Shown: positions 27,001-42,000 of the stretch, piece after piece
How positions within the stretch are numbered: the stretch's first letter is position 1
How the letters are laid out: each line of letters starts with the position of its first letter
NCBI RefSeq assembly: GCF_003790525.1
Contig: NZ_CP033635.1
DNA from: Escherichia coli
GTDB taxonomy: Bacteria > Pseudomonadota > Gammaproteobacteria > Enterobacterales > Enterobacteriaceae
Length of the DNA stretch: 64,000 nt
Reading direction: 5' to 3' (one strand)
Made by a program: the position numbers

Positions 27001-30000
27001 AAAGCAATGTTTTTAACCTATAAAAATGGCGCTGCATTTGCGCCATTTTTATTATTCAATGCATTATCTGTTTGAGCCTAAAGGGATCTCAGGGTCTGGC
27101 TCATGAGTAATTCTGTTTCGTAAATCTCTGCGAATAATTTCAATGGACCAGAACCAGACTAAATGTCCAAAAATTTCAGAGACATTCTCATACCACGGGA
27201 GATCAAACAGAGGTGGCGTCAGTCCCATGAGAGGGAATGAAATCATATGAACAAAAAGTTGGGCTAAAGCACCTGCCAGTAAGCCCTGCCAAAGTTTAAT
27301 TTTTGGAAATACTTCAGCGACCACACAATAACCGACAGCAAACACTATCGAAAAGATAATGTGCGTAACACCAACCCAGTTAAAGACATGCCCGGCAAAG
27401 GTATAAACAGCCGCATTGGGATCTGTCAGCCCTAGCCAGTCTCGAAGAAAAATATACGGAGGATTGAGAAAATTACGGGAGCAATCAATTTGCCCAGCAG
27501 CCCTGATTAATGATTCCGGGCCACACGCTGCATTAAACATATCCACCGGGCTACGTGGCGGCAATGGAACTTCTGCCCCCCACTTAACAAATGCGGAAAC
27601 AACGCCAGCAATCAGCCCAATGAATGCAGCAAGACCATAACGTCTGCGGTTTGGTGGAGTTTGTTCAAATATATTCATATCTACCCTGTTTGTTTAATTA
27701 TGTTGTACACCTCTTCAGGAGTATTCATAAAACAAGGCAAATGTAAAGAACTGTATTGTTTTGTATAACCACATGGTTACCTAATCGCCAATTAATATAA
27801 GCTCCATTATTTCTCCATATTTTTATGTTAGAAGTGACAAGGAGAAATGTAATGTTTCTCTCAGAGAATATAAATCATTCCTTTTGCCCACCTTAATGGT
27901 GGGCTTTTTTATGCAAAACCTGAACGTCCTGCGGTATTCCCCTGGCATTATGACTTTCGCGTTTAACCAACAGCCAAACCAGCAAACACGCCACCACAGG
28001 CACAGCAAAATCCATCAGGCTTGCCACACCCCATGCGTGCGGCTCAAAGCTGCCCCGCCATGGCATATTAATCCGCTTGCCATTTTCGAACAGCTGATTG
28101 GTTTAGTCCGGTGTTTTCCTGCTTGCACTTAAAAATGAGCGGATGGGAAACTCTCGAAATGGTTCGTCGACATGCTCACCTTTCAGTCAGGCATTTCACC
28201 GCGCACGCGAGCAAAATCAAAGGCACAAGAGGAGAACGTAGTTTACTTAAATGTGAGATAACTTATTGATTTAAATGGTGCCGATAAGAGGAACATAACA
28301 CACCGCATATTCTCTTTGATAAATATATATATTTTCTTGTTTCATCTTTATAAATGCCCCCTTTTGTGCCCCCACCTTGTTTTTCATGCGACTCGATGAG
28401 ACTTTCATCGAGTCGTTAATCTCATCAAATTCTTCACGTATCGTGGAAACCTTCGCAGATCTCCATCCCCTCACAGCCGTGATCGGCTAAGAACAATATT
28501 ACTTACCTCCCTGTAAGAACACCGGCTCATCAGCCCGCACGCTTTCCTAGCTTGAAGAATGTCTGTCGTAGTCAAATATGGTGCTTGTACCTGAGAGGTA
28601 AATCCATTGCGATCGATACGAACTAACTCATATTTCTCTACAAGAAAGTTAACGGCATTAGCCAGAGTGATACCGGCATCGATATGCTCCTTTATAACTG
28701 TTTCATCGCTAAAAGGTGTGTCGCTTAACATTAGGCCATAGTGCTGCTCAAGTAGACGAGTAAGTAACATTTGCCAGACAGACACGGGCGACAGACAGGG
28801 CTTCGCCGCCTGCGGAGTCGTTGCAGGTAGAGTTTTCATGTTTGCTCTCGGGAAATTAGTTAGCGTTGAGTGGAGTAGACGACGATGTATACGTAGCCGC
28901 AACTGCCAAGGGTATCGGCTTCGCAGGTGAAACCATCGTGGTACAGGGTGACGCAGTGGGCGTGGCGAGGATTCATTTCACCAGTGGTAAGCATCGATTC
29001 CATCTGGCTGATAAAGTGCGGGAATGTTTCATCCAGCTTCCGGTATTCGGCGTCACTGAATTTACCGGTGATACTGGCCCGGTCAGCCAAATAATGCAGT
29101 TGGTTGCCCTCCTGCACCAGACGTGCTCCCAGGCGCGGTGTGATATCCCGCTGCAGGCCCCATGTGATGTTACTCATTGATAAACCTCTTTTATTGTCAA
29201 TTCAGGGTAATACTCATCAGGCAGGCATACGGTCCGCTGCGGTCCTGGCGGCGTTCGGCGTATACCACCAGCACGCCGGGAATGTCAGGAACAGCCAGAC
29301 CGGTGTAATGACAGACACTGCCATGCCACTGGTATCTGCCGGTGCAGTATCGAAAAATGCGGGAGGCCGGATGCTGACGGTAAATCGTCATCGCCCGGCG
29401 TTTACTGATAATTCTCATGTCATACCTCAAAGCAGACCGTGTTCAGCGAACGACAATATCTGCGTACCACCGACGATAAGGTGGTCAGGCACACGGATAT
29501 CAACGAGCTGAAGCGCCTGCACCAGACGCTGCGTGATGGTCTTATCTGCCTTGCTGGGCGAGGTGTCTCCGGAGGGATGGTTATGCGCCAGTATCACTGC
29601 TGCCGCATTGAAGTACAGGGCGCGTTTGACCACCTCACGGGGATGTACCTCGGTACTGCTAATAGAACCGGCAAACAGGGTTTCGTGGGCAATCAACTGG
29701 TTCTGCTGGTTCAGATACAGCACCATAAACTCTTCGCGCTCCAGTCCCGCCATTTTCAGTTTCAGCCAGTCGCGGGCAGCCTGAGTGGAGGTGAATGCCA
29801 CGCCTGTTTCGCGCAGGTGTCGGTCAAGCAGCGTTAAGGCGCGTTTTACCGTGCGTTGTGCGGTTAGTGGTAATGCCGGAGCCAGTGGGATAAGTGACTG
29901 TTCCATCAAAAGTATCCTTAATCAATAATGCGCAGAATGGCGCTGGATTCTGGGTGCTGCAGAGAGTAATCCCGCAGCCGGTAATAGTGTTCAGTCATGG

Positions 30001-39000: not shown

Positions 39001-42000
39001 CTTCCAATGCAATCAGCATACCACTGCATCATCTCCCTCCGCCCTTCCAGATACAAAGCATGGTTGTACGTCCCACGAATCGCATTCTTATCGACATGCG
39101 CAAGCTGGGTTTCAATCCATGCCGTATTGAACCCTTCCTCGTGCAAAATCGTACTCATCGTGTGACGGAAACCATGCCCCGTTACCTTCCCCGTATACCC
39201 AATCCGTTTGAATACCTGATTCATACTCGCTTCACTCATCGTCTTGCGGGGATCATTTCGCCCTGGGAATACCAGTGGATATTGCCCAGATATCACCTTG
39301 AGTTGTTGTACGATTTCCAGCGCTTGGGTAGATAGGGGGACAAGGTGAGGCCGTTTCATCTTCATACGCTCTGCAGGTATTTCCCACACTGCTTTTTCAA
39401 GATCAAACTCACTCCAGAAAGCACCTCGTAGCTCGCCAGTACGAACTCCTGTAAGGATCAGCAGACGAGCGGCAAGAACAACTAACGGGCTTCCTGTGTA
39501 GCCTGCGAGAGCTTTAAAGAAGTCTGGTAACTCCTCAACAGTAAGGAAGGGATAATGCTTCGATTCATGCCCTGACATTGCGCTGGTTAGATCCGCTGCA
39601 GGATTGTATTCCGCACGACCGGTAACGATGGCGTAACGAAAGACTTCACTGCAACGCTGGCGAACCTTCTTGGCCTTCTCTGTCGCGCCACGGCTTTCCA
39701 TTCGACGTAGCACATTCAGCAGAACCAAAGGCTTGATGTCATTCACCGGCAGTTGGCCAATATAAGGGAAAATATCTTTATTGAAGGCTTCGATAATGTC
39801 GGAGGCATAACCTTCTGACCACCGGCTCACCTTCGTTCCGTGCCATTCAAGTGCCACAGCCTGAAACGTATTATTGAGCTGCACATCGCGAACCAACTTT
39901 TCTTCTTTCTTGGCAAACGATGGGTCGATACCTTCGGCCAGCTTTTTCTTGGCTTCATCACGCAGTGCCCTCGCTTGTGCAAGGGACACTGCCGGATAGA
40001 CACCAAAAGCCATACGTTTCTCTTTTCCATTGAAGCGATATTTCATCCGCCAGTATCGAGAACCAGAAGGAACAACTTCAAGATACAAGCCTGCACCATC
40101 TGCTAGCTTGTAGGCTTTCTCTCTGGGTTTAGCAGCATCTACCTGTCGAGCATTAAGCTTCATTGGGGGCATCTCCCTGGACCGAACACAGAATGCCCCC
40201 ACTTATGCCCCCAACTGCGACTTGATTTCGGTTGAGTCCAGTTGATAACAGGAGATAAGATACGGGCCAGAAACCGCAGTATACGGGCTTTTAGTTGATT
40301 TCGGTAGACTTGGGAAGAGTTTGAAATGGTGCCGATAATAGGAGTCGAACCTACGACCTTCGCATTACGAATGCGCTGCTCTACCAACTGAGCTATATCG
40401 GCCCTGAAAGGACATGATTCACGAACGTGAATCACGGTGGACAAGGTTAAAACTAACCGGGCGATGCGTCAATGGCCTTGTGAATCAAATGGCTACTTTT
40501 GCATCACCCGGTTTTATTTACGCACGAATGGTGTAATCACCAATGCCGATCCACTTGTAAGTGGTCAGTGCTTCCAGGCCCATCGGGCCACGCGCGTGGA
40601 GTTTTTGTGTGCTTACCGCCACTTCCGCTCCCAGACCAAACTGGCCGCCATCGGTAAAACGCGTAGAGGCGTTAACGTAAACAGCGGATGAATCTACTTC
40701 ATTAACAAAACGCTGGGCGTTGCGCATATCGCGGGTCAGGATCGCATCGGAGTGTTGCGTGCCGTGTTCACGAATATGGGCGATAGCATCGTCAAGATCG
40801 CTGACGATTTTGACGTTCAAGTCTAATGACAGGAACTCATCGTCATACTCTTCGGCTTTAACAGCCACCACCTTCGCGGGGCCTGCCTGCAATTGCGCCA
40901 GCGCAGCAGCATCTGCGTGTAACGTCACGCCACTTTCCGCCATTTGCTTGCTTAATGCGGGCAGGAAGCTATCTGCGATGTTTTTATTTACCAGCAACGT
41001 TTCTACCGTATTACACGTGCTCGGGCGCTGAGTTTTCGCGTTGACAATCACTTTCAATGCTTCAGCGATCTCTGCACTTTCATCAACGTAAATATGGCAT
41101 ACGCCTATACCACCTGTGATTACCGGAATCGTCGACTGCTCGCGGCACAGTTTATGCAACCCAGCCCCGCCGCGTGGAATCAGCATGTCGATGTATTTAT
41201 CCATACGCAGCATTTCACTGACCAGCGCGCGGTCAGGATTATCAATCGCCTGTACTGCGCCTGCCGGTAAATCGCAGGATTTCAGGGCGTCCTGAATCAC
41301 CGCCACCGTTGCAGCGTTAGTGCGACAGGTTTCTTTGCCACCACGCAGGATCACTGCGTTACCGGTTTTCAGGCACAGCGAAGCGACATCTACTGTCACG
41401 TTCGGGCGAGCTTCATAAATCACGCCAATCACCCCCAGCGGTACGCGACGACGCTCCAGACGCAGACCGCTGTCCAGCACACCACCATCAATCACCTGCC
41501 CCACCGGATCGGCGAGGTTGCACACCTGGCGCACATCATCGGCAATGCCTTTCAGCCGTGCGGGCGTCAGTGCCAGACGGTCAAGCATCGCTTCGCTAAG
41601 GCCATTGGCACGCGCGTCAGCAACATCCTGGGCGTTAGCGTTGAGGATGATTTCGCTTTGTGCTTCCAGTTCATCGGCGATTTTTTCCAGCACGCGATTT
41701 TTTTCGCGGCTGGAGAGTTGCGCTAATTTATAAGAGGCTTGCTTCGCGGCAATGCCCATTTGTTCCAGCATCAGCCTGCTCCTTAACGGGTAATCATGTC
41801 ATCACGGTGAACGGCAACCGGGCCGTATTCATATCCCAGTATTGCATCAATTTCTTGCGAGTGGTGTCCGGCAATACGGCGTAATGCATCGCTGTTGTAA
41901 CGACTGACACCGTGGGCGATATCGCGACCTTCGAGGTTGCAAATGCGGATGACTTCACCACGCGAGAAATTGCCAGTCACGCTTTTAATCCCTTTCGGCA

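Follow-up and report, generated by a model that had tools for sequence, protein, structure and literature searches.

A precisely bounded integrase-only island with candidate defence cargo at the thrW tRNA gene of Escherichia coli SMS-3-5

Introduction

The stretch of Escherichia coli DNA analysed here (64,000 nucleotides of contig NZ_CP033635.1, referred to as the window) is 100% identical to strain SMS-3-5 (NC_010498.1), and in it the 3' end of the tRNA-Thr gene thrW recurs about 12 kb away. Is the DNA between the two copies a mobile element that entered at the tRNA gene, how might it move, and what does it carry? We conclude that positions 28288-40338 (12,051 bp, counting one copy of the repeat) are very probably a site-specific integrative island, put into the 3' end of thrW by its own P4-type tyrosine integrase. 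The thrW gene is a recognised integration hotspot, and islands with P4-type integrases and tRNA-derived repeats are textbook elements. SMS-3-5 itself is a phylogroup F, ST354 strain of water origin (PMC11537424).

Results

The island boundaries and the empty site

The 15-mer AAATGGTGCCGATAA is present in exactly two copies within the window, at 28273-28287 and 40324-40338, against a chance expectation of 0.25 even with two mismatches tolerated. Twelve of its nucleotides are the 3' end of the tRNA (...TTATCGGCACCA) and three belong to the downstream flank; the tRNA, tRNA-Thr(CGU), is the only one that ARAGORN and Rfam identify in the window. The repeat extends to 21 of 23 identical positions (28270-28292 and 40321-40343) with a spacing of 12,051 bp. 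The features at the two ends are:

28270-28292: distal attachment (att) site, where the displaced thrW 3' end copy lies; core exact over 28273-28287, with 21 of 23 positions shared with the tRNA-proximal copy
40321-40343: tRNA-proximal att site, overlapping the thrW 3' end; 15-mer within the 21/23 extended repeat
40327-40402, minus strand: thrW, tRNA-Thr(CGU), the intact integration target (ARAGORN, Rfam)

A sequence-only reading had proposed an island of about 12 kb at thrW bounded by 15-bp direct repeats, and had named alignment against E. coli genomes with an empty thrW site as the check. We predicted the empty junction by deleting 28288-40338 from the window sequence and compared it with 5,426 complete E. 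coli genomes, the set used for all genome counts below. The junction is uninterrupted in 83 genomes and is matched at 100% identity in two, strains 702/18 and EC332, so that the proposal holds, with both repeat copies exact and the empty site found. Read directly in strains MEC2025-PR and 702/18, the empty site has a single repeat copy and is base-exact (...TTGATTTAAATGGTGCCGATAATAGGAGTCG...). In occupied strains the host left flank is joined to ...GATAAgAGGAacataac at the left junction, and island sequence ending in GAGTTTG is joined to AAATGGTGCCGATAATAGGAGTCG at the right junction; the predicted attP junction of a circular form reads ...GGGAAGAGTTTGAAATGGTGCCGATAAGAGGAACATAAC...

Strains 702/18 and EC332 differ from the window by 1-3 single-nucleotide polymorphisms (SNPs) per 15-kb flank, the same as carriers of the island. 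Because strains of the same clone with such similar flanks have the empty site, base-exact, the repeat is a true att duplication rather than a coincidence, and the segment is not syntenic core DNA.

The thrW allele of MEC2025-PR (positions 5622-5697 of the fetched locus) has a compensatory change in the T-stem, with G50:C64 in place of U50:A64. It is this allele, and not that of SMS-3-5, that the distal repeat fits on its island-derived side (GATAAGAGGA; window 28273-28292), a hint from sequence comparison that an earlier host had the variant tRNA.

Distribution of the island and its probable loss within a clone

Using a 12.5-kb query, the whole island was found in 16 genomes. Six of these carriers were inspected and all belong to one clone with the same flanking genes, with a tandem P22-like prophage in some of them. 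Public assemblies contain an exact match to PDC-M60A, a protein encoded by the cargo described below, in 967 indexed blocks, and each of the four distinct places displayed has the thrW surroundings seen in the carriers. Horizontal spread was considered as an account of this distribution and rejected, as the flanks are the same in every inspected genome and place. Copies of the island differ from one another by 0-4 substitutions. At window position 37541, in the AT-rich gap between the cargo operon and the orphan gene, SMS-3-5 has an A and the four other copies compared base by base have a C, either a private substitution or a sequencing difference.

The order of gain and loss was examined with SNPs in 11 strains. 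Only one SNP is shared: at window position 17234 the carrier XH992 and the empty strain 702/18 both have a C, which is the derived state by comparison with Nissle 1917; all others are private. This pattern favours precise loss, and the simplest reading is that the ancestor of the clone carried the island and that 702/18, and probably EC332, lost it precisely. Natural excision of the island therefore seems likely from these comparisons.

The integrase and candidate arm sites

The integrase gene adjoins the 3' end of thrW and is co-oriented with it, and short paired motifs lie just inside each end of the island:

38979-40163, minus strand: tyrosine integrase, 394 residues, with Arm-DNA-bind_3, Phage_int_M and Phage_integrase domains (Pfam)
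28355-28373, plus strand: TGCCCCC-N5-TGCCCCC pair lying 68 bp inward from the distal core, candidate P' arm site
40194-40212, plus strand: TGCCCCC-N5-TGCCCCC pair lying 112 bp inward from the tRNA-proximal core, candidate P arm site

The three Pfam domains, Arm-DNA-bind_3 (DUF4102), Phage_int_M and Phage_integrase, are matched at 6.7e-29, 2e-33 and 1.2e-22 respectively, the catalytic-region motifs VRTGELR, HGFRH and RGTY appear intact in the translation, and the protein matches NCBIfam NF007246 at 1.9e-89. Its identity to IntF of E. coli K-12 is 22%.

The TGCCCCC-N5-TGCCCCC arrangement has two matches in the window, located only at the two island ends and both on the plus strand, where none is expected. 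The proximal pair is kept in the thrW islands of strains C3728 and NCTC9113, whose integrases are 92-98% identical, and the distal pair is kept in NCTC9104 despite divergence of the surrounding DNA; no further pairs are present elsewhere in the fetched loci. From this placement and conservation we infer that the integrase binds these pairs as arm-type sites on either side of the attP core.

A low-GC cargo with a putative phosphorelay operon

The island is a mosaic of three parts, these being the integrase with the att arms, a 6.7-kb low-GC cargo, and a truncated distal module. Every component listed in the sequence-only reading is present: the integrase, an orphan gene, a three-gene operon, an insertion sequence (IS), and a toxin-antitoxin/RadC/antirestriction module. 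The cargo (32200-38900) has a GC content of 28-37%, compared with about 50-55% around it, and is thus foreign; the integrase-proximal cargo has no counterpart in K-12. Its genes are:

32551-35826, plus strand: PDC-M60A, 1,091 residues, a helical-repeat N-terminal region followed by a histidine-kinase-like core
35823-36272, plus strand: PDC-M60B, 149 residues, a stand-alone receiver domain with the acceptor Asp in IILDMSLP
36269-37432, plus strand: PDC-M60C, 387 residues, a receiver-hydrolase fusion (alpha/beta type, HSFG nucleophile elbow) ending in a hydrophobic tail
37912-38877, minus strand: orphan gene, 321 residues, a beta-rich N-terminal domain and a HEPN-like helical C-terminal domain

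The three genes of the operon match the PADLOC system PDC-M60 (A, 4.5e-55; B, 2e-35; C, 9.9e-23), in order and with 4-bp overlaps. A word-indexed protein search with PDC-M60A returned two clusters only, and it was an exhaustive search that showed the size of the family, about 1,500 representative clusters, nearly all of about 1,100 residues. The precomputed Pfam label of the protein is PF27260, Y4jQ; NCBIfam gave no match, and searches against PDB profiles and kinase ATP-binding domain profiles gave weak matches only. In an alignment of 53 members there is an invariant His744 in the motif LSxEIRHGxF, and the C-terminal part has N995, N1021 and EGGSGLYK, corresponding to N and G boxes. The AlphaFold model has a pLDDT (predicted local distance difference test) of 84, and its top Foldseek matches are all histidine-kinase DHp+CA cores (AdeS, CpxA, HK853, YycG) with a probability of 1.0, preceded in the protein by an N-terminal helical-repeat region of about 650 residues. 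The receiver pockets read VED...IILDMSLP in PDC-M60B and VDD...LILDVFLP in PDC-M60C (Response_reg, 6e-05).

Taken with the model, these sequence features suggest that PDC-M60A may be a histidine-kinase-like sensor that would phosphorylate both the receiver B and the receiver-hydrolase C, such that the operon could act as a phosphorelay switching on a hydrolase effector. As the effector, PDC-M60C might be a lipase or esterase that is directed to the membrane and serves abortive infection. As in canonical two-component systems, there is a predicted kinase-core fold (in the C-terminal region of PDC-M60A) and there are two receivers with an acceptor Asp. Unlike those systems, the output is an alpha/beta hydrolase rather than a DNA-binding domain, the kinase is too divergent for detection by Pfam HisKA or HATPase_c, and PDC-M60A has its long helical-repeat N-terminal region and is encoded on a mobile island. 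His-Asp phosphorelay-type signalling of this sort was not found in literature searches on anti-phage defence, nor was a functional study of PDC-M60, Y4jQ, or kinase- or receiver-based defence. An operon 63% identical to this one lies in a metagenomic element that also encodes a P4-type integrase, a relaxase and an Mrr-type nuclease. PDC-M60C is interrupted in one assembly by an IS30-like element (HTH_38 and rve domains; fetched-locus positions 13719-15954), which amounts to a natural knockout of the putative effector.

The orphan gene product has no significant match in Pfam-A, NCBIfam or PADLOC, and a PDB profile search with it was empty. Its C-terminal domain does have a HEPN fold, and we regard the gene as encoding a single HEPN-fold protein that is a candidate RNase. 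It differs from HEPN abortive-infection proteins and toxins, as there is no adjacent MNT antitoxin gene, no evident Rx4-6H motif, and no PADLOC or Pfam match. The cargo comprises two candidate immunity modules, with a putative role in defence.

A truncated distal module joined to an IS3-family element

Between the distal att site and the cargo are the following features, the last of which joins the module to the cargo:

28471-28839, minus strand: CbtA-family toxin gene (PF06755)
28860-29177, minus strand: CbeA/YeeU-family antitoxin gene, yfjZ (PF06154)
29197-29418, minus strand: DUF987 gene, ykfH-like (annotation, PHROGs scan)
29427-29906, minus strand: RadC-like JAB-domain gene (PF04002)
29918-30376, minus strand: antirestriction gene, ArdB/KlcA-type (phrog_10132, 4e-53; PF03230)
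30462-30698, minus strand: DUF905 pseudogene with an internal stop (annotation)
30776-30898, minus strand: 40-codon 3' remnant of a gene severed by the IS
30901-32158, minus strand: IS3-family element, 1,258 bp, with 26-nucleotide imperfect terminal inverted repeats

This set is a truncated version of a module, CbtA/CbeA-DUF987-RadC-antirestriction-DUF905, with which many tRNA islands in E. coli end. Positions 28550-30682 have 78% DNA identity to ykfI-yafW-ykfH-ykfG-yafX-ykfF of the K-12 element CP4-6. The sequence-only reading had described the cargo as unlike that of CP4-6, and this is correct for the integrase and the integrase-proximal cargo but does not apply to the distal module. By analogy with related islands, the position of the 40-codon remnant suggests that it derives from a YafY/YfjS lipoprotein gene.

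The IS had been labelled IS911-like; an IS is indeed present, but it is an IS3-family element related only distantly to IS911. A clean target duplication was looked for and not found, the flanks being CAC and CAG, which suggests an adjacent deletion. Together with the severed neighbouring gene and the fuller modules of NCTC9104 and K-12, the missing duplication indicates that the element probably deleted the rest of the distal module. The 5' part of the element contains a match to the Rfam family isrC, an Hfq-binding small RNA (31968-32090, minus strand, 145 bits); sequence of this family seems to be carried by the IS. Some carriers (e1-39, fetched-locus positions 18399-20659; TUM1586; EC17CM2; and one further locus) have a group II intron, encoding an LtrA reverse transcriptase/maturase, inserted in the transposase gene of the element.

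Other thrW islands with the same type of integrase

A related integrase and att-proximal arm adjoin thrW in 214 genomes, at 90-95% identity in about 190 of them, and the integrase with its att arms has 91-98% DNA identity to those of about 200 other E. coli thrW islands with other cargo. Two small hypothetical genes adjoin the integrase in C3728. In NCTC9113, with a 93%-identical thrW integrase, the neighbours are genes for an HsdM-like methyltransferase, an ORC/CDC6-family AAA ATPase and a hypothetical protein; the integrase-proximal slot thus varies between strains. The NCTC9113 three-gene set (fetched-locus positions 15746-19701) has the appearance of a further defence-type cargo at this position, and a type I restriction system is present further inside that island. 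The thrW island of NCTC9104 has a fuller distal module in the SMS-3-5 orientation, and has DUF932, GTPase and WYL genes but no phage genes. It also carries a heat-resistance locus (sHSP20, ClpK, FtsH-like, YfdX; fetched-locus positions 37035-43661), which shows that cargo at the thrW hotspot is varied.

The host flank and phages at thrW

Core DNA had been expected to resume, with yagU, immediately outside the distal repeat. This is not the case, as 594 bp (27679-28272) separate the end of yagU (27678) from the start of the repeat (28273), and they include the following feature:

28111-28269, plus strand: fossil 3' end of a lambdoid integrase gene of the HK75/mEpX2/HK542/SfX type, derived from a phage that integrates at thrW, not part of the island

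The fragment has 73% DNA identity to the integrase-gene 3' ends of the lambdoid phages HK75, mEpX2, HK542 and SfX, and the mEpX2 and HK542 records annotate attP, or the segment beside int, as similar to thrW and ptwF. We considered whether it is part of the island and rejected this, since it abuts thrW directly in empty-site strains and so belongs to the host. The same fossil beside yagU is common to about 1,300 complete E. coli genomes. The yagP-paoABCD genes, which are at this position in K-12, are absent from SMS-3-5. In K-12, identical sequence lies just outside the tRNA end at both thrW and ptwF (TTTGATTTTAATGG), and on its outer side ptwF is flanked by sequence similar to the fossil flank of SMS-3-5 (83% over 69 bp).

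On the other side, in XH992 (fetched-locus positions 27400-42373) and another strain, a P22-like prophage with tailspike, gp16, gp10 and capsid genes is inserted between the island integrase and thrW. This tandem arrangement indicates that the regenerated thrW is still usable as an attB by phages.

Discussion

A plausible mechanism for the insertion follows the organisation of the att sites. A circular form would carry an attP core (AAATGGTGCCGATAA, then four of the five next bases) copying the tRNA 3' end, with paired TGCCCCC arm sites on both sides of it. With its N-terminal arm-binding domain on the arms and its catalytic domain on the core, the integrase would recombine attP with thrW. Integration would restore an intact tRNA gene beside int and leave the displaced copy of the 3' end at the far boundary, while the reverse reaction would remove the island precisely, presumably without an excisionase.

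Several observations weigh against this account or against the role proposed for the cargo. No excisionase (AlpA/Xis) was found in the island annotation or, by PHROGs, among small intergenic open reading frames, and no relaxase, type IV secretion or coupling-protein gene was found in the annotation or the domain lists of the island genes (oriT was not searched); excision and transfer between cells would thus proceed without an identified helper. Neither was a replication or phage gene found in the annotation or the PHROGs scan. The score of the integrase against NF007246 (300) is below the curated cut-off of 434, horizontal spread of the exact island was not observed among the six carriers and the four places of the exact PDC-M60A, and the excision proposal depends on one informative SNP. 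For the cargo, Pfam-A as run on PDC-M60A returned nothing significant, and in the model some 100 residues separate His744 from the downstream helical hairpin that leads into the ATPase domain, rendering the phospho-acceptor site uncertain. The invariant residues of the orphan gene product include R214, R215 and H273, which are not in Rx4-6H spacing. PDC systems are 145 untested candidates from a guilt-by-embedding approach (bioRxiv 10.1101/2024.01.29.577857), and PDC-M60 is named in the literature only as a list entry, in a single paper.

Three other origins can be envisaged. One is that the island is a decayed P4-like satellite prophage, a cryptic prophage of the CP4 type that was once packaged by a helper and has since lost its phage genes. 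The P4-type domain architecture of the integrase fits this origin, as does the homology of the distal module to K-12 elements annotated as the cryptic prophage CP4-6, and thrW is also a phage target. However, no primase/helicase (alpha), capsid-size, sid, psu, delta or regulatory gene of P4 is annotated or detected (cos was not searched), PHROGs assigned the nine open reading frames scanned to antirestriction, RadC and unknown-function families only, and the proteins of the cargo have identities other than these P4 functions. In addition, the nearest phage integrases in the collection searched are at most 48% identical to that of the island, and the fuller relative in NCTC9104 is likewise devoid of phage genes and has its DUF932, GTPase and WYL genes instead. 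We consider this origin very unlikely.

A second origin is as what is left of an integrative element of the mobilizable or conjugative kind, in which the antirestriction, RadC and toxin-antitoxin genes would be an establishment module like that of a leading region, and a relaxase and oriT would have been lost through an IS3-linked deletion. The antirestriction and radC-like genes are at the distal end as this would require, the closest cargo operon outside E. coli is in the element with a relaxase and a P4-type integrase, and the IS has no target duplication and adjoins a truncated gene. Yet a relaxase or type IV secretion gene is present neither here nor in the fuller E. coli relative examined, and we rate this origin as highly improbable. 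It concerns ancestry rather than the present state, and is compatible with the island being a site-specific integrative element now.

Finally, that the integrase is inactive and the island comes and goes by homologous recombination with DNA of other strains, or by RecA-independent deletion between the short repeats, might be entertained on the grounds that no excisionase was found and that the exact island has no observed horizontal spread, but it is scarcely credible given that the empty sites are base-exact with a single repeat copy, that empty and occupied strains of the clone differ by 0-3 SNPs per 15-kb flank with no imported tract, that the integrase gene is intact and the candidate arm sites conserved, and that 15 bp is shorter than the usual minimum for RecA-mediated exchange.

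The site-specific integrative island preferred here is precisely bounded, integrase-only and of a known kind, namely that of the integrase-only defence islands found at tRNA hotspots in E. coli (Hochhauser et al. 2023, PMC10121019); it is confined to one clone among the genomes inspected and is probably still excisable. Like those islands it has one phage-type integrase beside a tRNA gene, a defence-type payload, no other mobility genes and variable occupancy among genomes. It differs in that its payload, PDC-M60 and the HEPN-fold orphan gene, is only a candidate for defence, and we found no mention of thrW, proA, yagU or CP4-6 in the main text of that survey. A stronger version would hold that this is an active, minimal integrase-only element excising without a dedicated excisionase, that a His-Asp phosphorelay on it senses infection and leads to a lipase-like effector, and that the orphan gene encodes a new single-gene HEPN-fold defence protein; we regard this full combination as doubtful.

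Comparison with other islands gives a similar picture. CP4-6 of K-12 uses the same thrW target, and shares the homologous toxin-antitoxin/DUF987/RadC/antirestriction/DUF905 block (78% DNA identity) and IS3-family debris. It is, however, 34 kb in length, with IntF as its integrase and metabolic cargo (argF, mmuPM, yagEF), and its tRNA-derived repeat is much longer, with all 37 tRNA-side bases of the compared stretch identical. Its orientation (fetched-locus positions 2872-37255) is opposite to that of the SMS-3-5 and NCTC9104 islands, so that the distal module is inverted relative to thrW: in K-12 the toxin end of the block abuts thrW, and intF is distal and abuts ptwF. The island of SMS-3-5 thus has neither an IntF-type integrase nor the gene set and orientation of CP4-6, and only the ykfI-ykfF block is shared. 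In GI-pheV (PMC11537424) and the vat island at thrW of B2 strains the integrase is likewise immediately 3' of the tRNA gene, in a mosaic with IS elements, and P4-integrase islands of this type likewise have tRNA-derived att repeats, of 19-23 bp; they range from 10 to 110 kb, compared with 12 kb here, and virulence genes are absent from the SMS-3-5 island. The integrase beside thrW is intact in SMS-3-5 but reduced to a truncated fragment in Nissle 1917.

As an island type the element is ordinary and adds little, and its value lies in the cargo modules. The clone does provide a clean natural pair, with and without a 12,051-bp insert and base-exact, which is convenient for studying excision and movement in integrase-only defence islands, a matter that the survey of such islands did not settle (PMC10121019). 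The TGCCCCC pairs provide compact candidate attP arm sites for a thrW-specific integrase found in about 200 complete genomes, and the two candidate immunity modules are available in a small clonable context, for which the isogenic-like empty-site strains are natural controls.

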